A DNA stretch of 63,704 bases, filler included, from Rozella allomycis CSF55 (Eukaryota): NCBI GenBank assembly GCA_000442015.1. It is 21 parts of 21 records of this genome, joined end to end, with 100 filler letters (N's around TTAATTAATTAA, not from the genome) between each part and the next. Parts side by side here need not be neighbours in the genome. Positions count along the whole stretch, not along the records: positions 2,487 to 7,213 come from KE561252.1; 20 more parts are not named here. One strand, written 5' to 3'. Shown in pieces: positions 78 through 63,330 of this stretch (position 1 is the first letter of the stretch; each line of letters opens with the position of its first letter). The position numbers were made by a program, and so were the translations under genes. Below the pieces are notes generated by a model. It saw only the letters and a program-made list of their open reading frames with translations. It was not told the origin of the DNA and did not search any database.

Positions 78-1625
78 TTATTGAAGTTCAACTTCAACTT
101 CCTTGAGATTCGTTTCCCAAGTCTCGATATTCTATTTGAAATAATAAATGAATGTTACTGATTTGTAATAATTTATTTGTTCTTGAACATAGCTCTTAAT
201 GATGTGCTTCAAGTCTCTTTGTCGAACAGCATGAAATCTTTCCAATTCATCATTGACCAACTTTGAAATTGAAGATAGTTCATCAGCAACTTTTTGTTTC
301 TGTATTTCAAGCTAATTGAAGATGAATAAAATGTATACTTGGGTGATAATGTCTTTTGTTTTTGAAATGCCGTGTTTTCTAGACATTTCGGGTGAAGTAT
401 CAAGCATGTTACTCAAGTGATTAGTGAGGCTAGTAACGACGCTATTCTTCCTGGAAGCCACAGCGCCTTCAAGCTGAAGCAATTGATTTTGCTTTGTGAA
501 ATGTTCTTCTTGGATTGATTCGAGTTCCAATTGCTTAGCCCTTCGATAACGAAGAACATTCTTTCGTTTCATTTTAAGTTATCTCTTACTTTGACGCTTT
601 GACTGTAGAGCGCGTATTCATGCAAAGATTCACCAAAGCATTCTTCAAAATACGCGCCAAGGTTGTTTGTTGTTAAGTGAATGCCGTCAATCCCTTCGCC
701 AATTTTCTCAAGCGCAGACGATAAGTTCTTTTCTTCAAGACTGAAACCGTTAAATGATGCTCCCAAATCAGAATAATCTCCAGACAATTCAAACATCAAT
801 AAACTGAATTTTTACCTTGACATTTTCTTGAAATTCTTTTTTGTGTTTTATCAAGCGAATTCAAAGAATGACTGTAATATGAATTGTCATTTTCTATTTC
901 CATAAATTTAGGATCAGGATTTTTTAATTTAGACGATGAAGAAGCAGTCTTGTCCTTTTTTACATTCTCAGATGCCATAATGTCATTCTTGTTATCGTTA
1001 ATCTTAATTGAAATACCCAATTCTTATCTTCTTCCAAAAATCTATGGAACAAATGATGTGAACATAAGACTGGATGCTCTACCAGCCTATTAAGAAACGT
1101 TTGTAGCATTCTTTTTCTCTTTTCCGATATAGCTAAATCAATCTTTGATTTTGATGGTTTAGCGTAGCTCGCTAAAAATACATCAAATACTATTGTTACA
1201 CAATGAATGTTTTTCAGGAATCGGCGGAATGATAATTACTGGATGAAATAATCCCAAAACATTTCTAAGACTTTCAAAGTCTGAATATCTCCTCTTGACG
1301 CTAAAATTCTAAATCTCTACTCATTTGAATTTACCTTGAACGCAATTTGATAGAGGTAGTGGTTTCCAGTCCCATCAGTGTTCTTGTAAGCATCGACAAT
1401 CGAAATAACTTGCAATGGACCCGATGGGCATCTTTTTTTTTCATTGTGCTGGCTCAACAAACGGTCTACAGCACAACAAAACACATCTTTCTGGATTGGT
1501 TTAGGTTCTGCTTGTGCAGAAGTACTTGGTTGCGATGAAACAATGGAGGTTGTAAGATTCTCATAGTTAGAAGCGGCATTACCAGACGCAAATGCGGTGG
1601 TAGGAGTAGTATCAAATTCGTCCAT
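78..1625 (-). CDS. Sorting nexin, PX + BAR (SNX4/Snx41/Atg20-like), spliced
   Basis: PX motifs [12 protein letters not shown] and IIPPIPEKH, then [20 protein letters not shown] helices [14 protein letters not shown]; about 7 tiny introns join the ORF-track fragments. Confidence 0.85.
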
Positions 1626-2486: not shown

Positions 2487-2603
2487 ATTTCACACACGAT
2501 ATTAATGATGTGTGCGCTGGAATTGTATATCGTAGAACTCAAACTTTTTTATCGTCTTTATCCAATCGGCCAATAGTCTGAAAATTTGGAATTTTTGAAT
2601 TTT

Positions 2604-3279
2604 ATGAGTTCTCCTCTTGTGTTTCCGGGCCAAGAAATAGGTCTATCTTCGGATTACCTTGCTTCAACTGGCATTTACGAGAAAAACGGAAAACTTTTCT
2701 CATCACTTTTCGGGACTCTAGTGATCACACAAGAAAATGTAGGCCTATTTTGTTTCTATTTTTTGTAGAAAACCAAAACCGCCAGAGTTATTCATTCAAA
2801 AAGACAAGAAAATTTTGTAACGCCTACGGAAGGACATGTCGTCATTGGCAAAGTCACAAAAATCAATCAAAAGCAAGCAAATGTGAATATTCTTGTGGTA
2901 GATGGGAAATATGTTTGCCATGATCCATTTAAAGGAATAATCAGGTAATCTATTTAAAAATTAAAAATATGGTCACAGGATGTGAGGCTGACTGAGCGGG
3001 ATAAAGTTCAAATGTTTAAATGTCTAAGACCTGGAGATGTTGTTAAAGCTATTGTGGTACAATTTAGTACTTTCTTTGAATAGATTTCGTTAGGTGATGC
3101 TAGTGCTTATTTTCTTAGCATTGCTGAACTAGAGTATGGCGTCATATGTGCTCAAACTGAATCTGGTATGTATTATCATAAATTTTTAACGAGGTGAAAT
3201 GCTGGTACCTTTTTCATCTGATGAAATGATCTGTCCAAAGACAGGTGCACTGGAATCTAGAAAAGTAGCAAAACCTTAG
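2604..3279 (+). CDS. CSL4: Exosome complex component Csl4 (4 introns)
   Basis: Spliced translation includes VFPGQ, VIGKVTKIN, FKGIIRSQDVRLTERDKV, RPGDVVKAIVISLGD, CPKTGALESRKVAKP. Confidence 0.9.
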
Positions 3280-3347
3280 AGAAATGTTTGTCATGATAAC
3301 AATTCTTTATTACACTTAAATAAATTCATTATAATTCAATATCCACA

Positions 3348-3811
3348 TTATATTTCCACGCGCTGTTCTTTCATTTTCTTCAACTTCCTTTGAGCATGCC
3401 AATACGGCAGGTACACTTTGTCATAATACACCAAAGCCCATCCAGTAAATGCTAGTCCTGAAGCGCAGGCAAACATCGCATCTGCAGGATTAGATCCTTT
3501 TCTTACTACCCGGAATAGAGATGTAAACAACGAGCCCGCTGACATGGATATTGCTAGCGGTCTAGCAAATTCTTCATTCTTATTATAAAAGGAGTAGCTA
3601 TTAACAATTACAAATCACAATTTTACCTTGCAAAAGCTAATCCCAAACCATAAAATGTATTCGTAGCCAGGAACTCCCACCGCTGATGATGAAAGTAATA
3701 ATCAAGAGCATTGTAAGCAAAGTCTTATTCTTTAACGCTAATAGTCTTACGGAGAGTGGATTGCGTTAACGTTATTCCTGTTTCATTTAGTTCGACTTTA
3801 TCTTCAGTCAT
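3348..3811 (-). CDS. Small membrane protein of unknown function (2 introns)
   Basis: Two GT-AG introns of 27-29 nt give a continuous ORF MTEDKVEL...RVEI with hydrophobic segments. Confidence 0.6.
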
Positions 3812-4004
3812 TTCAAATTGGCAAATTTCAACAACGCATATAAACCTGTTTATTTGAGAATTGAGATTTGTAAAAGATTAGTACTCCGTTAAGATTTAAA
3901 AGAGACAGCCATGACGCGATATTGGAATCAAATACAATTACTCGTTCATGATTACTTCAAATATATTAGCAAAAATATTATGCCAACCATATGTTTATTT
4001 AAAT

Positions 4005-4758
4005 TTAAAAATCAATGTCATCATTCAAATTTACCTGCACTTTTTCGCCAGGTTTAAAAGCCGGTGTACCGAGATAAGGGCATGTGCTACAACGAAAGGC
4101 ATCGCCTAAATAGCAATTACCGCATGAAGATTTGGGTAAAGAATTTGTAGTATCAACTTGGTTCTTCTCTGCTTCTGCTAATCCACATGTGCAGTTTTTG
4201 CATGCTCGTTTCTTCTTGGTGGCAGTAGTACCGCAGTCAGATGCCGTTAAATCTGGTTTCTTCAAGTCTTCAGCATCTAATAATTCATCTTCATCGATAA
4301 GATCGTCATTGTTTGAAATTGAGTTAATCCAACTTGTTTTCTTTTCTCCTTTTTTGAATGATATTTTAATACTTTGGACATTAGAGGGACATTTGCATTT
4401 ATACTAAAACAAATAGAAACAAATAAATTACGATATTCAAGTTTTCACTTATTTTGGTAGCCTCTATTTCCACATAGCCAGCATATTTTAAAGTCCTTTG
4501 AAGTGATTCGTTTCCTTGACAAATGAGAAACCCACTATCAGCTATACAAGGACTTAAAGAAGATAAGAAAGTTTCATCAACACTTGCTTCGCTTTCTAAG
4601 ATCAAAAAAATATTTTGAAATCTGCGATCCTGCAAAGACTTTATATTTTCTTCCAACGACGCAAATACAGTGTTTTCATTGTTTATATTAAATTCCTTTT
4701 CAAAAGAGTTGAAAAACTCGGTTAAATTCACAGACGATGAAACAACCAGATTACTCAT
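4005..4758 (-). CDS. DRE2: Fe-S cluster assembly protein Dre2/anamorsin (1 intron)
   Basis: [54 protein letters not shown]. Confidence 0.95.
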
Positions 4759-4917
4759 TTCACCAAGCCACTAAAAATGCAATTGAAAAAGCACATTAAG
4801 AACAATTCTATTAGGTTTAAACTTAATTGGTTTCAAAACTTGTTGGGGTTTGAAAGTTATTCTGAAAAATACTAATTTAGGTTTTCAAATCTATAATTAA
4901 CCTTCTCCTAGTTTCAA

Positions 4918-5649
4918 ATGACCGAGAAGATAATATACTCTTTTGTTGCTTTTAGACACACAATATTGGCTGAAAATGCTCTTTGCACGGGTACGTTCCC
5001 CACAATAGCTTCAACAATTCTCAAGCGTTTGGTGGTAAACAATGACTCTAAAGCATCATATTCGTATGATGACTATATGTTTCATTATATCATTGAAAAC
5101 CAATTCGTATATCTTTGCTTGGCTCGTCAAACCTTTTCTAAGGCAGCAGCATTTTCATTTTTACAAGACATACAAGAAAAATTTGAATCAATGTACGGAA
5201 ACGTCGTTGAAGCAAAATCAACTTTATTGCCGTATTCATTAAGTGAGTTCTCTAACATTTTAAATGACCGAATGGTAAGTAAAAAATGATATCATTCCTC
5301 TAGAAATACTTCAACACGAATGGAGACTATGACAAAATGAATAACGTTAAAGGTGAAATAGATCAAGTGAAAGACATCATGGTTAGTAATATTGGTAAAT
5401 CAATTTTATAAAACTTACAAAGAAAGGGTTTTGGAGCGAGGAGAAAGAATTGAACTTTTAGTTGACAAAACAGATCATCTAAGTCAGTCGGCATTGACTT
5501 TCCAAAGAAGGGCTAAGAAGGTGAAGAGATCATTTTGGTGGTCAAACATGAGATTGGCAGTTATCTTGGTATTTCTGTTAATTCTATTGGCTTATATCGG
5601 CACAAGCTACTTTTGTGGATTTGATTTCGATAAATGCATGAATAAATAA
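4918..5649 (+). CDS. VAMP7: Longin R-SNARE VAMP7 (2 introns)
   Basis: Longin domain, SNARE motif VKDIMVSNIERVLERGERIELLVDKT, C-terminal TM helix. Confidence 0.9.
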
Positions 5650-5686
5650 GGTTAAACTCATGACTTTTTAAATTTTGAAATTTCGA

Positions 5687-7213
5687 ATGTCGTCTAGAAT
5701 ATACTTTGGGTCCTTGGAAGAAGAAGAACGAAAAAATCAAGTAGCTTGTTGTAGTTTATAAAACAAGGCAAAAAATTCTATGCAAGAAATTCCAGCAACC
5801 ACCGGTGTTACTCTGGATGAGCTGTCCAGTAACTCGTCTCATATCTCAATATGGCAGGTGTAACAACAAAACCACTTGGTTCTGTCACTTTGCAAAAATG
5901 GAGGGAACATGAAGAAATGATCCACGAAATTGAAAAGAAACGNTGATCCACGAAATTGAAAAGAAACGCAAAATTAGAGAAATAGTTGTTCCGACAGATG
6001 ACTATAAAGTTAAGCAACAGCTGAGATCTATGGGCGAACCTATTTGCCTTTTTGGAGAAGGAGTAATTTAGCATATATAAATTTGACAGCCTTTTGAGCG
6101 CCGAGAAAGATTAAAGCAACTTGTTGCTTCGCGCGGTCCAGTCATTTCTCAAGAAGAGTATTCATCTTCTGAGGAGGAAAATGTAACGTTTTTATAAACT
6201 AATTATGAAGAATGCTGACGAAGAATTCTATACTGTCGGTCCTAAAGAACTTTATGATGCAAGAAAGTTCCTAGTCGATTATTCCTTGTCCAGAGCAAGA
6301 GACAGATTATCACATGCACGCGAAAAAACAAAAATGTCGACAACACAATTAAAGACAGAGAGATATAAACTATATTCCAAGCTTGAAGTAATCCACATTG
6401 TTTCGATTTATGAGACTACAGAGAGTTTTGCAAGTCAAGTAGGAGGTGATAGAGCGATTTCTTGTTGTAAATTTGCACCAAGAAATTCAAGTATCCTTGC
6501 GACTTCATCCTGGGATGGTACTTGTTCAATTTGGACAAATCCCGAGTGTAAACTCAAAATCACATTAAGGGGTATAATTGTTTTCAATTGTTTAAAGGAC
6601 ACAAAGATAGAGTTGGAACCCTGGACTTTCACCCCTTGTCATTTGATTCCTTGAGCGAAAATGCCGCCAATCTTGTTTCGGGTTCATCAGATGGGATTGT
6701 AAATCTATGGTCATTAAATAGGAATGAACCACTGGCTGAACTTAAAGGGCACACTTTAAGGGTGGCGACAACTTGTTTTCATCCAAGCGGTAGATATATT
6801 GGAAGCTCAAGGTAAGGCTAAGTTATTTGCTTACAAATTAGCTTTGATACATCATGGCGATTTTGGGACGTTGAAACCCAACAAGAATTGTTACTGCAAG
6901 AGGGTCATTCAAAGGAAGTCTTTGCCTTAGGATTTCATCCTGATGGATCTTTGTGTGGGACTGGGTAGTTTATTAACATTGCTTATATTTAGTGGATTTG
7001 ATTCGGTTGGTAGGATATGGGACATTAGAGTGGGAAAGTCTATTAGCACCTTGAAAGGACATGTTAAAGACATTTTGTGCATCAATTTTTCACCAAACGG
7101 GTACCATGTGATTACTGGAAGCGATGACAATACCATTAAAGTTTGGGATTTACGCCAACATAAGAATATATACACAATTCCAGCGCACACATCATTAATA
7201 TCGTGTGTGAAAT
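5687..7213 (+). CDS. PRP4: U4/U6 snRNP WD40 protein Prp4, 3' truncated
   Basis: VPTDD...[22 protein letters not shown] motif, [21 protein letters not shown] repeats; multiple tiny introns. Confidence 0.92.
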
Positions 7214-7313
7214 NNNNNNNNNNNNNNNNNNNNNNNNNNNNNNNNNNNNNNNNNNNNTTAATTAATTAANNNNNNNNNNNNNNNNNNNNNNNNNNNNNNN
7301 NNNNNNNNNNNNN

Positions 7314-9415
7314 TAGATTCATTATTTTCGACAAGAATTGGATTCATGATAGATAAAGCCTTTAATTGATTAAACCAAGGTTCATTTTCTAGAAAAGGTG
7401 TTACAATGGCCCCTTGGCATTTATCGGCCATTATTTTGTGGATTGTTTTCGTGATCAATTCTACTGGAACTTCAGCCCATACAATCTCATTTTTCCATGT
7501 TTTATTAAAACTATTCTTATCTGCTGTGTAGTATATGTTAATCTTATTGAAACCTGGTACTGTTAAGACTTCTAATGTGAAATGTTTATAATATTTTTGA
7601 ATCTTTTTGAAATTGTTATTTGATAGCAACCAATTAATTTCATTGATTGTTTGAACGGTCATAATGATTTGATTATCATCACTAATACTTAATGGATTGG
7701 AATCATATATTCGACTAGGTTTATCTGGTAAGATATTCAAGACTCCCGGCCGATGAATAATTTCAAAATCAAACTCTAACAAGATATCAATCCAATTATT
7801 CATCATAGCATTGACATGTTTTTGTGTAAAGAGATAAGATAGCGCGCGATGATCTGTTTAAAGTTTGAAGTGCACCCCGAATACATAGTTACGAAATTTG
7901 TCTAGCGCAAATATTATAGCCGATAATTCTCGCTTGGTCGCACTGTAGTTGCGTTCCCCTGCAGTCAATGCTCGTGAAGCAAAACAATTATACTGAATTT
8001 GATTATCATATTCCTGGTAAAGAACAGCACCTAGTCCTCTGTTTGATGCATCGGTAGCTATACAAAATGGATGGTTAAAGTCAGGATACTTCAAAATANA
8101 AATTTGATTATCATATTCCTGGTATAGAACAGAACCTAGTCCTCTGTTTGATACATCGGTAGCTATACAAAATGGATGGTTAAAGTCAGGATACTTCAAA
8201 ATAATCCGTTCCCACAGTATTCTACGTAGCTTCGCGTAAATATTTTCAAATTCTTTAGTCCATACAACGACTTTTGCTTTCTTAATTTATCAAGTGGTGC
8301 AGTTAAAGATGCATAATTTGGTATTAAATCTCTAAAATAATTAAAAAATCCCAATTGTTGTTCTATCATTTTTCCAGTTACTGGAGTTTTCCATTCATCC
8401 ATGATTAATAATTTTTCTGGTACCGCTTGAACTCCGTATTTGTTAATCTTAAAGCCTAAAATGTCTAGTTTCTCGTAAGCAAAACAACACTTTTCCAAGT
8501 TAATTTTCAATTTGATTTTGTTAAGTTCCTTAATGACAANTCCTAAAATGTCTAGTTCCTCGTATGCAAAACAACTCTTTTCCAAGTTAATTTTCAATTT
8601 GATTTTGTTAAGTTCCTTAATGACAATCTTTACATGTTCTAAATGTTCTTCGTAACTGTTAGAGAAAATAATTATATCATCGATATACTCATTCACAAAA
8701 GGAAACTTGCTAAGGTGTTTTGTCATAACCTTTTGAAATTCTGCGGGAATATTTTTGAACCCAAATGGTGCACCTTTAAAGATATATTGTTTTCCATTCC
8801 AAGTAAATGTAGTTTTAATTTGATCTTGCTGTTTTATTCTGAATTGATGAAAACCCGATTTAAGATCAATCTTGGTGAATACCTTCGCCCCTTTCAAAGA
8901 TTCTAAGATTTCTTTTATCAATGGAAGTGGATAGGTAATTGTTCTAGTGATTAGGTTGATGTGTCTCGGATCAAGACAAACTCTCCAGTCTTTTTGTTTT
9001 CCTGATATATCTTTTTTAGCAACAACCAATAACGAATAATTCCATTCCGAGTGACCTTTTAATTCTTTTATGAGCTTTGCTTCTTCCCATTTTTGAATTT
9101 GTTTGGTGACTATTGGACGCAGAGAGTGAGCTATTCTATATTGAGATTTAAATGCAGGTTTGTTGTCACCCGTTGCAATTTGAATTTCAGCATCTGGGAG
9201 AGTGCAAAAACCATTTATAGATTTGTTTGTATTTAAAAGAGGTTGAAGATGGTCAATCAAATATGTAGAGTATGCATCTGCTAAGAAGGAGAAATAGGTT
9301 GAAGTTGATTTATTGTCATCTAAGCTTTCGATGACTTTTGGAAAGGACGGTACAGGGCCTATGAATTTTGCTGGTGGAGTTTCGTCATTGGCCTGTTTGA
9401 TTTCCTTGATAGTTG
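7314..9415 (-). mobile_element. Ty3/Gypsy LTR-retrotransposon pol fragment (RT, RNase H, MTase-like domain), degenerate
   Basis: RT: WRVCLDPR, FTKIDLKSGFHQ, PFG, YIDD. RNase H: TDASNRGLGAVLYQ, NYSATKREL, TDHRAL. Frameshift near 8270 and in-frame TAA at 7858-7860. Confidence 0.92.
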
Positions 9416-9712
9416 NGTTTCACAAAGGCAGAAATGTTAAACACAACACGGAAGATTGCAAATCTTTGAAATACAAGAATCAGAAGTTGGAAAAAGCTAA
9501 AGAGAAAAATACTGACAAAGAANACAGATAATCATATCTTGATTATTGCCACGCCACTGTGCTATTTAAGCGTAATCAGATGAATAAAACCCTGGTTAAC
9601 TTTTAACGATTANNNNNNNNNNNNNNNNNNNNNNNNNNNNNNNNNNNNNNNNNNNNTTAATTAATTAANNNNNNNNNNNNNNNNNNNNNNNNNNNNNNNN
9701 NNNNNNNNNNNN

Positions 9713-31489: not shown

Positions 31490-33086
31490 ATGATGTTGGC
31501 AAATGATTCATTTGTTCCGTCTACTTTAAATTATTCCCAATTTTATCAAACAACTGGCCAATCTTCATCATATCAACAACAAATCTCATTTTCGATTTCA
31601 AAAAAGGAATTGTTCACCCCTTCAAATGGGTTCAAATCATTAATTAAAAAATTGAAGCATAATTTCAAAATCTCTCAGTAAGTTGAATCACATTTAATTG
31701 TTGCAGAATAAAATCTGAAATTAATGTCGAAGCAATTTCTTCATCAAAGCTGCTAATTATTGCAGCGCCATCTGAGAAATATTCATCTAAAGAGTTTGAT
31801 GCTCTGCATGCATTTATTGATCATGGAGGTGCTTTATTGTACTTGGGAACTGAAGGTACTGAAAAATCGAATTTTAACTACTTTTTGGAAGAGTTTGGCA
31901 TTTCAGTAAACTCTGGTACAAATATTAAAAGCATTAAAAATAGGTACACTTCATGCATGTATTTTATAAGATTCGGTGACAAGGACTTCATACTTTAAAT
32001 ATTTTCATCCAAAGGAAAACTTCATTTCAAACGGAATAATAAACAGAGAAATAAACCGCATAGCGGGAAAACAACCAAAATCAATGACTGAAAATGAAAA
32101 TGTTCTTGATGCATTACCATCAGCTAATAGAATTGGACGACAGAGTTTTAGCAACCAGTATGCAAACCAGCAATACAATTTTAGTGATTTGACTATGGTT
32201 TACCCATTCGGCTCTACAATAAATGTAGATAAGCCAAGTGTCCCAATAATATCAACAGGTAGTGCCTCATACCCTACAAACAGGCCGATCGGCGCAGTTT
32301 ACCACCAAGTAATAAACTTGATGCTTTATTTAAAAGTATGGCAAAGGCAAAATCGTGGTCTTGGGTTCGTGTCACATATTTAGTGATCAATATTTGGACA
32401 AGGAAGAAAATGGAAAGTTGTTTGACGCGATTATCAAGTTTCTATTAGACGGTAATACCAAGTTTAGAATTGAAGTAGACCATTTGTGTCTTGACTCGAT
32501 TGACGCGGACGATCCTGATGTAATTACGTTGTACGTTTGATATGCAGGTTTCCGATTACCATTATGTCCCCGATATATTTTCACATTCAGAACAAATTAA
32601 ATGTTGCATACAAGAAAGCGAAGAGCCTCCCAAGGACTTTAGAAAAATGTTCGATAAATCTCTGTTTAAGTTTGACATGAATCTATTTCCCAAGGTCTTG
32701 AAGGCTCATGAAGTAAGTATCACAACGATTAGACATCAAGGTATTAAAAGTGAAGCCAGTTCCTTTAACCTTAATAGAACCACAGGTAAATCTTTTTCAA
32801 GCTCCTAAAACAGTTTGAGTTGCCACTGCCTGAATTTGAACCCGCAGTTTTCCCACCTACTTTTAGATCCCTACCTCCGCCGCCACTTGAATTGTTTGAT
32901 TTAGATGAAGAATTTGCAACCAATGAAGAAAAACTTGCAAAACTGGCAAACAAATGTAGCTCAGATGATATTGACTATTTTATCAAAGAAGCCGGTAAAA
33001 TTTTTGGATTTTACAATGACGATTCCTTTGGAATTCTAGAAAAGGTTGTCCGTCAGATTATAGACTGGAAAAAAGTTAATATATAA
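31490..33086 (+). CDS. IFT52: Intraflagellar transport protein 52
   Basis: NFNYFLEEFGI, KYFHPKE, VYPFGSTINV, PQFELPLP, PAVFPPTFRSLPPPPLELFDLDEEF. Confidence 0.95.
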
Positions 33087-35994: not shown

Positions 35995-38900
35995 ATGTTT
36001 AGTCTAGAAAATTTTACCGATCTTCTTCCTCCGTTTGCTGATGAGCAAAGCAAACAGCTTGATTTAAAGGTAAGATATATACTAGAATAGGATAAGATCA
36101 AGCAAAAGCATGCGGAGATGCAAAAATTGGAGCATCGAATTGAGGAACAAAAAAGGCGCCGAGATTTGATGAAAGAACACATGAAGAATATACGAACAGA
36201 ATTCGGCCAATGTCAATCATTGAAGGATGCAAAGAAGAGAGAGATGGACACAGAAAACAACTTGAGACAAATTGCGGAACGACAAATTGGCCGTATGCAT
36301 CAAGAAATGAGACGCTTATTAAATGAAATTGATGGTGTTACTGGTCATGTAAATATTAATGCACTATCTAATTTAACAGATAAACAATTTGCAAAGGAAT
36401 ATCCATCAATCCAATGAGAACATTGAAAAGATGCGACAAAGTATGAAAATGAGCAAAGAAGAACTTGATGAATGGCTGAAGATACAAAATGAAAAAGAGG
36501 AGGATATGATGGCGATGGCAAAGTATAGCAGACAAGATGATACAAGAATTAAAGAAATCATGTTGAAACTAGAGAAGATGTTGGGTGAAGTACACAAGAA
36601 GAAACAAGAATTGTCTCTGGAAGTTACAGAAACGCAGGCGGTTCAAATAGAATTAGCCAAAACAACAGAAATGTTCCATTCTCTTCACAATGAAAGACAA
36701 CAATTGATAAAAAGATGGGAGAATTTGATAGCTAATTTTACAGAGAAAGATGCTGATATTGAAAGCAAAAGAAACGAAGTAGAGCAACTTCAAGTATGCA
36801 AGCCTGAATCCAAATTTTAGAAATTAATTAACGAAAAAGTTGCTATTGTAAATGAAAAGCAAGCATTTTTAAACGAACAAATAGACAGAGCGGAATCCAT
36901 CGAAAAGAAGATTGAATTGACTGATCGGCTCGTGGGAAAAATCAGGTAACGAAAGAAAAGAAATATTAGAAGGTTGGAAGAACAAGAGTCCAGTTTGTCC
37001 TTGAAAGAATTCCAAGATGAAGTTGAAATGATAAGAAGCACCTTGAACAAGAGTAAAAATGCATTTTCTATTTTACTAAAGCTACAATCGAGTTGAATTC
37101 CAAAAAAGTGGAAATAAACAACCTAAGAAATGATCTTCAAAAAAGGCAAGACAGATTAGAAAAGGAAAACAAACAACGAAAAGAAGCTAAAAATAGACTC
37201 GAACAAGCCACAGACAAAACAGTCTCATTAGAGTCCAAAGCGGCGTCATTACAAGATATATTGAAGCAAGATGAAGAGAAATTTAAAGGACTTGAAAAGG
37301 AAATCAAAAATTTGAGAGAAATCCGTATAGTTTATTTTTTTCGCTAAATAGAATTCAAAAAGACGCAACAAGTATTTCAATTTAGAAAGGACGAGCAAGA
37401 CTTGACGGCTGAAATTTCTGGTGCTGAAGCCACCATCAAGAATTGGCATTCTAAAATATCAAAGTATAATATGGGAAATGATAATATAGGCTTGAAGATC
37501 AAATTCAAAAACAGCTGGAATTGATTTACAATCAAGATTTCCAGATCCAATTATTAGAAAGGAAGATTAGAAAAATCAAAGGAGAAAAATCAGAAGAAGA
37601 AAAAGAAGTTCTCAATGAAAAAATAAAAGAGTTGACATTGGCATTAGCAGAGTCTAAAAAGAAGCATTCATTGCTAAGTCAGCAATACAAAAAGTCTTTG
37701 GATGAAATTCGTAGGTTTACCAAACAATACGAAAACTTATTGAAGGAACGTAAAGGTAAAGTTGATATGTCTTAATTCTAAAATAGGTAATTAATGTTTA
37801 TGATGATAATGAGGTATAATTATTTGATGGCAAAATAAAGGTGTGGACCAAGCTTTGGATGATATAACATTGTATAATGATAGTGCCCAACGCCAGCTAG
37901 TTTCAAAGATTAAGGAAAAGGAAGAATTTATGGTCGAAGAAAATCTTTTAAGATTAGAATTGCAAAGATTACGAACATTTTTATCGTCAAGAGCAGATCA
38001 GGTAATTAAACTGAATGGAAATAAAAGGTCTATTCATTAGAGGCAAGACAGGTTCAATTGCAATTAGCCCTTGAAGAAAGGCAAAAGGAAATCGATTTGA
38101 ATCAAGAAATTACGAAATCACAAATAAAATTTGCTCAAGAAGAAAAGTAAACGGAGATTTGGAGTTTCAAAAGGCAACAAGTTAAGTTACAGATACGAGA
38201 GAAGAATGCGAAAATTCAAAAATTGAAAAACAAATATGATGTGTTGATTGCGAAAATAAATTCAGATGAAGAAGAACATTCTCAAGCTTACTATGTAATT
38301 AAAGCATCTCAAGTAAATAATTTAATAAATTGTAATTAGCGAAGAGAGGAGCTGCAAAGGGAAGGTGATGCGTTGGATGCTAAAATAAGAAAGGCAGAGG
38401 CGGAGATAAAGGCGTTAGAAAACACTTTGAATCTCTTAAACACAAGGAATTCAAAATACAGAAATACGTAATTGAATGTAATTGTTGTGGACAAGACTTA
38501 CAATGCCAGACAACAATTCAGAGGAAGTGAAACAAAAAATGATTTTAGAGCAGCAAATAAAATCTGCAGTTGACAAACTCCAATCAAAAAAGTCCGACTT
38601 GGAAAAGATTCAAAAAGAAATTGAAGGATTGGATTCTTCTCTACAGATTTATCATCAAGAAGAATCCAACCTGTCCAGTTCTATAGATGAGCTTCAAAGC
38701 AAGTTAGATTCACTAATCAAAGATATCGAAGACCAAGAAGCAAGAAAACAAAGATCAACTCTCTTAATAAAAAAGTATTCTAAAAATGATTTATAAAAAA
38801 AGGATTGCGAATAATCTAAAAAACCAAGAAAAGGATTTGTATGAAATGGCTTCACAGGATATCCTCTTAAAGGAACTAAAAGAAAACAATAATCAATTGT

Positions 38901-43992: not shown

Positions 43993-46900
43993 ATGGACGA
44001 AATTCTTCCCAAAAAGCAGCACCGATCCAAGCAAAGCGGTGCAAAGCTAAAGAAAAAGCAAAAAAGCACTTCCTCTGAAAACCCGCGAGTAAAAAGTTTA
44101 GATGGATATAAAAGGCATTTGCGTTCCAGAGTGGGCAAAAGGCTGAGCGAGCAGCGCGCCGAACGCTGGATCTGGGGGAGAAGCGTTTGCATGTTCCTAT
44201 GGTTGATAGAACGAGTATGGAGCCGCCGCCTATTGTCGTGGCTGTTGTTGGGCCGCCTGAAGTAAGGTTTGTTGGGTGGTTGAATAGGTTGGCAAGAGCA
44301 CGTTGATTAGAGATTTGGTGAAGAGATATACAAAGCATAATGTGAATGAGATCAAGGGGCCGATTACTGTTGTAGCTGGGAAGAATAGAAGGTTGACGTT
44401 TATTGAGTGTGCGAATGATATTAATGCGATGATTGATGTGGCAAAGATTGCTGATCTTGTGCTGCTGCTTATTGATGCGTCTTTTGGGTTTGAGATGGTA
44501 AGAGTGAAGCGATTGGTTGAGGTAGGAAACATTTGAGTTTTTAAATATCCTGCAGACACATGGGTTTCCAAAAGTTATTGGAGTTTTGACGCATTTGGAT
44601 TCATTCAAGGATAATAAAAAGCAGAAAAAGACGAAAAAGATGTTGAAGCAGAGATTTTGGACTGAGATTTACCAGGGCGCAAAGTTGTTTTATTTGTCTG
44701 GGATGATTAATGGAAGATATTTGAAGAATGAGATTCATAATTTGTCTAGATTTATTTCAGTGATGAAGTTTAGGCCGCTAGCTTGGAGGAATTCGCATCC
44801 GTATTTGGTTGTTGATAGAGTTGAAGATTTGACGAGTGCGGAAAAGATTAGAGAGAATAATAAAGTGGATAGAACGATATCGGTGTATGGGTATGTGCGC
44901 GGAACTAATTTGAAGCCGAATTCCAAGGTGCATATTCCTGGAGCTGGCGATCAAGTGATTAAAGAGATTAGTTTGTTGGAAGACCCATGTCCGTTGCCTG
45001 ATGTGAAGAATAAGGTTACTGGAAAGAAGAGAAGAACATTGAAGGAGCAAGAAAAGTTGATTTATGCGCCAATGACGGATGTAGCTGGTATTTTGTATGA
45101 TAAGGATGCTGTTTATATTGATATTCCAGAGAGAATGATAAGAAACAAAGAGAAGCAATCTGAAGGAGAGCAAATATTGGAAGAGATTGCGAATGTTGGA
45201 GGAACTTTGGATGAACAGATGGAAGAAACAGGGGTTTCAATGTTTAAGGGAGGTGAGAGAGTCAGAAGAAGGGTTACATTTGGAGATGAAGTAGATGAGA
45301 CTGATGAAGAAGAAGATGAAGGTGAAAGTGACGAGGATGAAGAAATTGATGATAACGAACAAATGGATGTAGAGGGTGAAAGTGGTGAAGAAGAGAATGA
45401 AGGCCCTCACAATGACGATGATGATCTTGATAATGAAGAAGTTTTAGACTATGGCGATGACGATGATGAAGATGAAGAGTGCAATGATAAATGGAAAGAA
45501 AATTTTCAACAAATGTTTTCAAAAAAGAGAGTGAATTTGATGAAAATGGTTTATGATGAAGATGAAGCAAGAGGAGAAGAAGATGTAGAAGAAGAAAGTG
45601 AAGAAGAAGAGTTGTTTAAAAAGGCCAGAAAGGTTGTTGATGAAAAGGATCAACTTTTAGATTCCTTCAAGTTTAAATTTAATAAAGAAAAGTATTTTGA
45701 TGAAAATGAGTTGAGAGAGATTGGAAATAAGTTTATTACAGGAAAGAATGAAGAAGATGAAGAAATTTATGGAGATTTTGAAGATTTAGAAAAATCAAAT
45801 GAAGACGAAGAAATTTCAGAAAATGAAAAGATGGAAAGAAAAAGAGAAATTTTAAAGAAAAAGTTTGATGAAGAATTTGATAATAAAGATAAAATAAAGT
45901 TTGATACTTTTTATGATGAAATGAAGAATGAAATGAATCAACAACAACAAAAGAATATTGAAGAATTTAAAGATTTGGATGATCAATCAAAGATTCAATT
46001 GTTGGGATTTTCAGCAGGGATGTATGTTAGAATTGTTATAGAAAATGTTACTTGTGAATTAATTGAACATTTTGACCCTTGCTATCCAATGATTTTGGGT
46101 GGACTTCAAATGAATGAAGAATCATTTGGATTCATTCAAACTAGAATAAAGAAACATAGATGGTTCAATAGAGTATTAAAAACAAATGATCCATTGATTA
46201 TCTCTCTTGGATGGAGAAGATTTCAAACTATTCCAGTTTATTCTATATGCACAGATGGTGATAGAAATAGAATGTTAAAATACACACCTGAACACATGCA
46301 TTGTCTTGCTACATTTTATGGTCCAACTTGCGCTCAAAATGTTGGTTTTTGTGCCTTTCAATCTGTTTCTGATGTTTCTTCTCAATTCAGAGTAAGAGCT
46401 ACTGGGGTTACCCTTGGAATGAACAAATCTACAAACATTAACAAAAAATTAAAAATTGTTGGATATCCAATAAAGATTCACAAAAAAACTGCATTCATTA
46501 AAGATATGTTCAACTCTGCTCTAGAAGTGGCAAAGTTTGAAGGCGCAGTCATTAAATCTGTTTCTGGTATCAGGGGTGTTATTAAAAAGGCTATCAAAAG
46601 TCCAGAAGGTGCATTCAGAGCAACGTTTGAAGATAAAATATTAATGAGCGACATTATCTTTCTTAGAACTTGGTATCCAGTTAAACCCAAGGTATTTTAC
46701 AACCCTGTCACTTCTCTTTTGCTTTCAAACAAACTTTCTTGGAATGGAATGCGTCTATCTTCTCAAGTCAGAAAAGATGACAACATTCCCCTCAAATCAA
46801 ACTCTGATTCAATCTACAAAGTAATCCATTCCATCTCCTTTAATCTTAGAAAATTGAACGCGTTGAAAAGAGATTCAATTCTCTCAAAATTCCAAAGAAA

Positions 46901-62661: not shown

Positions 62662-63330
62662 GTGAAGTTGAAAATTTGAAAGATAAAGATGGAGATATAA
62701 TTGAATTTGGGGGGTATTGTCTATGGGACGAAGAAGATTGGATTAGAAATCTTGGTGATGACTATCCATTTATTTACACCAAGCTCAAGAAATTCAAAGA
62801 AGGTATGGTTCAATTTTACAAATCCTTCGATGCTGATATTGTTTGGAATGTTTATTATGCCTTATTTTCAAACTCAAATGTTATTGAGAACGACCATTCG
62901 TTCGTGCTACTCGGGATTGTTGGAGATTGTATGACCCATACATTTACAATATGGTGGCGTTGATATGGTTTTGGTGACTGATACAACAATTGTTGGAATC
63001 AATGTGACCATTGCTAGCACACAAATAACAAGATTTTTCGAAATGTGGAAACCCATAGCGGATCAACATCACTTTTCAATTAAAGGTTTGTTTGTAGCTG
63101 GTGATGATTTTACTCATGAAGAAGAAAATGTCAAAGTTGTATACCTGAAAAATGTTTATCAAAAATTTTGGGAAGCTTTGCGTCCCCGTCAAATGCCTGA
63201 TGTTCAAGATTATGTTTGCTCGTGCTGTTCGAATTGCTCCTCAAAGAGATGTGGATGCAACAAGTCAGGAAACGTATGTAGTCAAAATTGCAAATGTGAT
63301 CCCGAAAAGGGTTTAAACAAAGTTGAATGA
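62662..63330 (+). pseudogene. Crinkler-type REase-fold effector C-terminus with a CXC domain, disrupted
   Basis: PIHLQYGGVDMVLV...GINVTI resembles PD-(D/E)xK CR-REase motifs; CSCCSNCSSKRCGCNKSGNVCSQNCKC; frame change and in-frame TGA near 62932. Confidence 0.5.

Follow-up and report, generated by a model that had tools for sequence, protein, structure and literature searches.

The second intron of the predicted CSL4/EXOSC1 gene of Rozella allomycis CSF55 was found to begin with GT and to end with TG in a 63,704-nt stretch of joined genomic contigs (hereafter the window). A functional CSL4 mRNA would, with a probability slightly better than even, be made by a putative GT-TG splice at the usual intron length of the window. 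The 27-nt intron removed by this splice leaves a complete and conserved protein, while a canonical alternative that keeps the reading frame deletes five conserved residues and is the basis of the public gene model.

The CSL4 gene and its surroundings

The CSL4 finding is carried by a contig of 4,727 nt (2487-7213), in which the neighbours of CSL4 are a CIAPIN1/Dre2-type gene, a Sec22-type SNARE gene (Longin and Synaptobrevin), and a WD40 gene. This contig is therefore an ordinary nuclear housekeeping neighbourhood. The window is composed of small contigs of about 1-12 kb joined by N44-TTAATTAATTAA-N44 linkers, so that genes separated by a linker may lie apart in the genome. Elsewhere in the window, the minus strand of 7258-9419 contained long ORFs with reverse-transcriptase-like motifs (YIDD) and segments duplicated around single N bases; from its ORF translations only, this region is probably an LTR-retrotransposon fragment.

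CSL4 is a core subunit of the exosome. The gene was identified as CSL4/EXOSC1 from its domain and protein matches, and its model is given in Table 1. Exon 1 matched the N-terminal domain ECR1_N (Pfam accession PF14382, E=2.4e-12), and exons 2-3 matched the EXOSC1/S1 domain (EXOSC1, Pfam accession PF10447, E=4.4e-17). With these two domains and a C-terminal ...RKVAKP tail, the predicted protein resembles the CSL4 of fungi and animals; it would be ordinary if the TG splice is used, whereas the public model is five residues short. The best database match was a protein of 182 amino acids (P0002), named by NCBI from R. allomycis CSF55, and the closest protein from outside Rozella shared 36% identity. 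A metagenome scan with P0002 returned one locus of 29% identity, which is too distant for a comparison of introns.

Table 1. Coordinates of the CSL4 gene model, the candidate junctions of its second intron, and other introns discussed in the text.
Feature	Position	Strand	Description
CSL4/EXOSC1 gene (predicted)	2604-3279	+	five exons, four tiny introns; ATG 2604, TAG 3277-3279
Exon 1	2604-2738	+	CSL4 gene model
Intron 1	2739-2768	+	30 nt, GT-AG; matches public model P0002
Exon 2	2769-2944	+	CSL4 gene model
Intron 2 (putative)	2945-2971	+	27 nt, GTAATC...ATATG, GT-TG; two in-frame TAA codons
Exon 3	2972-3056	+	CSL4 gene model
Intron 3	3057-3083	+	27 nt, GT-AG; exact 9-residue insert relative to solved CSL4
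Exon 4	3084-3165	+	CSL4 gene model
Intron 4	3166-3193	+	28 nt, GT-AG; agrees with P0002
Exon 5	3194-3279	+	CSL4 gene model
(R)SQDVR segment	2972-2986	+	15 nt; exonic with the TG junction, intronic in the public 42-nt model
First AG after donor (cacAG)	2977-2978	+	34-nt intron; frameshift, stop at codon 105
Second AG after donor (gtgAG)	2985-2986	+	42-nt in-frame GT-AG intron; end of the public-model intron
Candidate GT-TG intron	790-815	-	26 nt; PX-BAR sorting-nexin gene (PX E=1.5e-8)
Gap in IFT52-type gene	31916-31970	+	55 nt = 28+27, AG/GTA at joint; homology-anchored
Stretch in coiled-coil gene	37756-37840	+	85 nt = 31+27+27, AG/GTA at both joints
BMS1 intron	44498-44525	+	28 nt, GTAAGA...GTAG; placed by the residue numbers of solved BMS1 chains

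Three possible junctions of intron 2

Intron 2 is preceded by ATA ATC AG, reads GTAATCTATTTAAAAATTAAAAATATG (2945-2971), and is followed by G TCA CAG GAT GTG AGG; apart from its first and last base, the intron contains no G. The letters and coordinates given in the first-pass annotation were exact. The annotation had further held that reading through the intron meets TAA, that the conserved motif GIIRSQDVR is restored by the TG acceptor only, and that the rest of the gene is intact, and each of these points was borne out. Two in-frame TAA codons were seen in the read-through, and removal of the 27 nt produced an open CSL4 CDS of 187 codons in which GIIRSQDVRLTERDKV aligned without gaps to the CSL4 of other species. 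The core R-x-x-D-[VI]-R-x-T-E-x-D-K of CSL4 was complete only under this splice.

The donor, GTAATC, fits the consensus GTA[A/T] of 70 local introns and is of the U2-type GT class, while the 3' end of the 27-nt form is TG and not the canonical AG; at the sequence level, intron 2 combines a U2-like donor with a TG terminus and is a GT-TG intron. A U12-type intron was rejected. The motifs of U12 introns are the donor [AG]TATCCTT and the branch TCCTTAAC, and the donor of intron 2 reads GTAATCTA, with no TCCTTAAC in its 27 nt.

Two AG dinucleotides downstream of the TG provide canonical ends (Table 1). The annotation had correctly taken the nearer one to disrupt CSL4, and it overlooked the second, which ends an in-frame intron. 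As a consequence, its description of the TG as required by the frame did not hold: the frame can be kept without the TG, and only the motif depends on it. The 42-nt option preserves the frame, rebuilds an AGG (arginine) codon, and loses the five residues SQDVR. The public protein P0002 (...DPFKGIIRLTERDKV...) was built on this GT-AG intron (2945-2986), and it lacks SQDVR for that reason.

Coding potential of the SQDVR segment

Read in frame, the 15 nt that follow the TG translate exactly to SQDVR. In an alignment with 14 homologs from outside Rozella (A1), R-x-x-D-[VI]-R was found at this position in all 14, and SQDVR itself was letter-identical in four of them (P0005, P0006, P0007, and P0009). 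The segment holds the D and one R of the R-x-x-D-[VI]-R motif, and the residues R123, D126, and R128 were invariant in an alignment of the homologs only (A2). When the solved CSL4 chain 8pel_I was aligned with the read-through translation, exactly nine inserted residues were observed at intron 2 and nine at intron 3, and SQDVRLTERDKV directly followed GIIR. Intron 2 also appeared as an exact insert of nine residues in alignment A1. The composition of the last 13 nt of the 42-nt intron was exon-like, with a log2 likelihood ratio of +2.74 that was matched by one of 70 intron 3' ends and 12 of 70 exon starts. That fifteen intronic bases should by chance spell out this conserved motif exactly and in frame is very improbable, and the 15 nt are coding now, or were until very recently.

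These observations bear directly on the public model, which would be right if the canonical 42-nt intron is removed and the organism makes a Csl4 without SQDVR. The old acceptor would then have changed from AG to TG by mutation, at the cost of an exon end of which the 15 nt are a recent remnant. We consider this reading unlikely. It agrees with the deposited protein, and its intact frame and rebuilt arginine codon are in its favour, as is the similar fold predicted for its product: the public 182-aa protein folded as an S1 barrel in AlphaFold2 with a mean pLDDT of 79.9. Confidence dipped only locally, with the pLDDT blocks of residues 91-110 at 69-73 in this product versus 82-84 in the homolog, and this comparison does not show an unfolding of the domain by the five-residue deletion. 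However, the 42-nt splice deletes an invariant D and one invariant R that are kept in 14 of 14 homologs, and in the AlphaFold2 model of the nearest homolog the deleted segment makes up the turn immediately following strand 3 of the S1 barrel. It also assigns to an intron 15 nt that are exon-like in composition and that still encode the motif perfectly.

Intron lengths and acceptor contexts in the window

An intron census was obtained from codon-usage gene chains with GT..AG introns, a mild length prior, and retraining, to which the three canonical CSL4 introns were added; its models are imperfect, with CSL4 not rebuilt and BMS1 mis-modelled. Lengths of 25-31 nt, most often 27-28 nt, were found for 70 of the 77 modelled introns (25 nt, 2; 26 nt, 14; 27 nt, 18; 28 nt, 20; 29 nt, 8; 30 nt, 4; 31 nt, 4), and a peak at 26-28 nt was present when the length prior was removed (21 of 61). 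The 70 introns within the band served as the reference set. All of them ended in AG, with donors of GTA[A/T], acceptors of mostly AAG or TAG, and a GC content of 26%. No branch consensus was visible in the local introns, only an A-richness at -4/-5. AGs ending at position 24 or earlier were passed over, and in 69 of the 70 reference introns the used AG was the earliest at or beyond 25 nt.

The introns of the window hence seem to follow a working rule in which the donor is followed by an AG at a distance of about 25-31 nt. In intron 2 of CSL4 this band holds no AG, and the intron is an exception to the rule, not the rule itself. The first-pass annotation had proposed that the 3' splice site may be set by distance from the donor rather than by AG. 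A distance limit on the site is well supported by the narrow band of lengths and the skipping of early AGs, but the dispensability of AG is not supported: the reference introns and each unit of the chained introns described below all end in AG.

None of the seven census outliers was confirmed by homology as an intron longer than 31 nt. A 34-nt model in BMS1, the only one of this length in a well-scoring gene, was wrong, as the exon pieces fit human BMS1 (residues 93-162 and 163-262) only with a 28-nt intron. This intron skips an AG ending at position 24, where splicing would give a stop. A 74-nt model, as read from the ORFs, joins an unrelated ORF to the next gene, and a 54-nt model was rejected as one long intron, being composed of 27+27 with an internal AG/GTA. 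The models of 48, 22, and 19 nt all fall in one poorly conserved gene, and the 38-nt outlier is the PX-BAR gene discussed below.

The context of each candidate acceptor was scored over positions -10 to -3 with a matrix from the 70 local introns. The reference acceptors (n=70) averaged 0.91; their 10th percentile lay at -0.87 and their lowest score was -2.12. A typical score of 0.16 was obtained for the TG site, while the AG of the 34-nt intron scored -1.92, near the minimum of the reference acceptors, and the AG of the 42-nt intron scored -3.88, below all of them. The length of 27 nt is also at the centre of the distribution, and those of 34 and 42 nt are outside the 25-31 band. The public model thus faces additional difficulties: its intron is longer than any confirmed in the window, its splice must skip the nearer AG at 34 nt, and its acceptor context is worse than that of every reference intron.

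The putative TG acceptor in contigs of four runs

The region was compared with contigs of four sequencing runs, each from a different study. Contigs of the runs X1, X4, and X7 (word depths of 204, 122, and 25) showed zero differences from the window across 2497-4052. X1 and X4 are possibly the source of the assembly, a flag that X7 and X8 do not carry. A diverged contig of the run X8 (depth 5.5) covered 2510-3230 with 15 differences and two gaps, a divergence of ~2%. Within intron 2 it had a single change, at 2960 (A>C), with the TG and the next 15 nt identical. The TG was hence read in contigs from all four studies, none of which had an AG at the acceptor.

Between X8 and the window, the CSL4 exons differed by five substitutions in ~515 nt, which in the frame of the model were four synonymous changes, one of them in exon 3, and one non-synonymous change (P4T). 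The four introns differed by five substitutions and one insertion in 112 nt and were approximately five times more divergent than the exons. This divergence and the excess of synonymous changes therefore indicate that CSL4 is under purifying selection in the model frame. In intron 1, X8 carried two substitutions and a 1-nt insertion that extends it from 30 to 31 nt; its length drifts between the two sequences yet remains inside the 25-31 band.

The same comparison weighs on a second alternative, in which the first AG is used and the transcript is frameshifted and degraded, with CSL4 being a young pseudogene or a gene held at low expression by unproductive splicing. This AG is the one picked by the rule of the first AG at 25 nt or more, which 69 of the 70 reference introns follow. 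We nevertheless regard the 34-nt reading as distinctly improbable. The downstream exons are open and conserved to the C-terminal RKVAKP, the 4:1 ratio of synonymous to non-synonymous changes includes a site in exon 3, no second CSL4 protein from this organism was found in the protein search, and the established place of the protein in the core of the exosome argues against its loss.

An assembly or base-call error, with a true acceptor of AG (for example, if T2970 is really A), is very unlikely and already largely refuted: while the window is a draft pieced together from many small contigs with N linkers between them, and another frame break in it is a 1-nt difference from paralogs, the independently assembled contigs of X1, X4, and X7 match it without a difference and the diverged contig of X8 reads TG too. 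The rest of the probability belongs to mixtures of the TG, 42-nt, 34-nt, and sequence-error readings.

Search for further non-AG introns

Two screens of the window were performed for other introns of this kind. The first, a codon-usage chain model that allowed GTA..NN introns of 24-31 nt, was insensitive and did not rebuild CSL4 itself. With a strict penalty it picked three sites, two of them ending in TG. The site at 37814-37839 was an artefact of a chained intron. The TG site at 62929-62953 was also rejected: in paralog-like proteins DPYIYNYGGVDMVLV continues across it uninterrupted, and the copy in the window carries a frameshift. The surrounding region, 62664-63330 on the plus strand, is a frameshifted copy of a multi-copy family, with a 1-nt difference around 62950 and a large internal deletion. 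Full-length members of this family have 600-760 amino acids, a GxGKSH P-loop, and a Cys-rich C-terminus; 18 matches were found at E<=0.001, and no Pfam domain was found in the window pieces.

A candidate remained in the PX-BAR sorting-nexin gene (Table 1), where the 26-nt form is nested inside a 38-nt GT-AG intron of the public model P0017 and would add ELSG to the protein. The gene model of another Rozella protein, P0018 (91% identical), differs strongly here, and both public models avoid the TG. No alignment of this region to solved SNX structures was obtained. TG accounts for 6.6% of the dinucleotides in the window, and a nested TG with two in-frame lengths in the band has roughly a one-in-eight chance per case; the CSL4 and PX-BAR cases together are suggestive and not significant. 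The second screen, a noisy one based purely on the bridging of ORFs, gave nine TG hits with no enrichment over other dinucleotides, and a search for unbridged neighbouring gene chains added nothing. Overall, a second non-AG intron with homology support was not found in the window by screens that were either insensitive or noisy.

Chained introns

Two stretches longer than the usual band were resolved into consecutive units of about 27 nt (Table 1). In the IFT52-type gene, the end of the upstream exon corresponds to residue 119 of the solved chain 5fmr_A, and residue 122 of that chain is matched by the second full residue encoded in the downstream exon. The split codon is therefore at 120 and the first full downstream residue at 121, and this alignment shows that the whole 55 nt is removed. 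As in the coiled-coil gene, every unit ends in AG.

Discussion

In the reading favoured here, intron 2 of CSL4 would be a U2-type ultrashort intron with TG in place of AG at its 3' end. The introns of this genome would be removed within a narrow band of ~25-31 nt, most often at 27-28 nt, and intron 2 has a normal donor (GTAA), a normal length, and a normal A/T-rich 3' context, with AG absent from the band. Exon ligation would use the G at position 27 and give the conserved ...GIIR SQDVR LTERDK... protein; we infer both the ligation at TG by the spliceosome and its efficiency. Use of the AG at 34 nt would lead to a premature stop, and some unproductive splicing of this kind may run alongside the TG splice. 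The public 182-aa model would then be an artefact of GT-AG-only prediction, five conserved residues short.

Cryo-EM structures show that the last G of an intron pairs with its first G and that the branch adenosine is the partner of the A at -2. The TG site would retain the former contact and lose the latter, for which the tight geometry of a 27-nt intron may compensate. Against the TG reading, all 70 reference introns end in AG, the screens of the window gave no second non-AG intron with homology support, a canonical in-frame 42-nt alternative exists whose product still folds in AlphaFold2, and changes to the A of the 3' AG strongly impair exon ligation in budding yeast.

Functional U2-type GT-TG introns are described in mammals, in GNAS, TSPYL2, and ARS2, of which the ARS2 intron is conserved between human and mouse (passages of PMC4176328 and PMC1557818). 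The putative GT-TG intron of CSL4 would join this rare class, as both have a normal U2-like GT donor and a TG 3' terminus. The mammalian cases are mostly alternative 3' sites of long introns with polypyrimidine tracts and are proven by cDNA. In contrast, the CSL4 intron is predicted from DNA, and its TG would be the sole productive site of a 27-nt intron that has no polypyrimidine tract.

Ultrashort introns are reported for ciliates, microsporidia, dicyemids, and myxozoans in passages of PMC13644364, and Rozella is absent from the list of lineages given there. For R. allomycis S23, a passage of PMC6349667 describes introns of roughly 30 nt without conserved motifs. As far as these passages go, the ultrashort-intron lineages and the window share a very narrow range of lengths below ~30 nt and degenerate internal signals; no statement on non-AG acceptors in such lineages appears in the same passages. 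A search of the full-text literature, with the genome paper (Curr Biol 2013) outside its scope, found no report of non-AG acceptors or chained introns in Rozella.

A more general idea is that the spliceosome acts here as a molecular ruler, which ligates at a G ~25-31 nt from the donor, as a rule that of an AG, and accepts TG if the band holds no AG, while longer introns are removed as successive units of ~27 nt with zero-length exons. This idea is tentative, and we hold it possible but doubtful. Recursive splicing with zero-length exons in Drosophila proceeds through AG/GT ratchet points. The chained units in the window (28+27 and 31+27+27) resemble these points in having AG/GTA at their internal joints. 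However, recursive splicing in Drosophila subdivides very long introns, whereas the putative splicing units here are of ~27 nt.

Splicing at the TG would make an essential housekeeping gene dependent on a 3' splice site other than AG, in an intron regime that is among the shortest known outside ciliates. It would be a natural test of the extent to which geometry can stand in for AG in exon ligation. The deposited CSL4 protein would then probably be wrong by five conserved residues, and GT-AG-only gene models of this genome deserve checking wherever an intron exceeds ~31 nt. Should the ruler idea be true, such annotation would systematically mis-model a small share of the genes, for example CSL4 and possibly the PX-BAR gene at 790-815.
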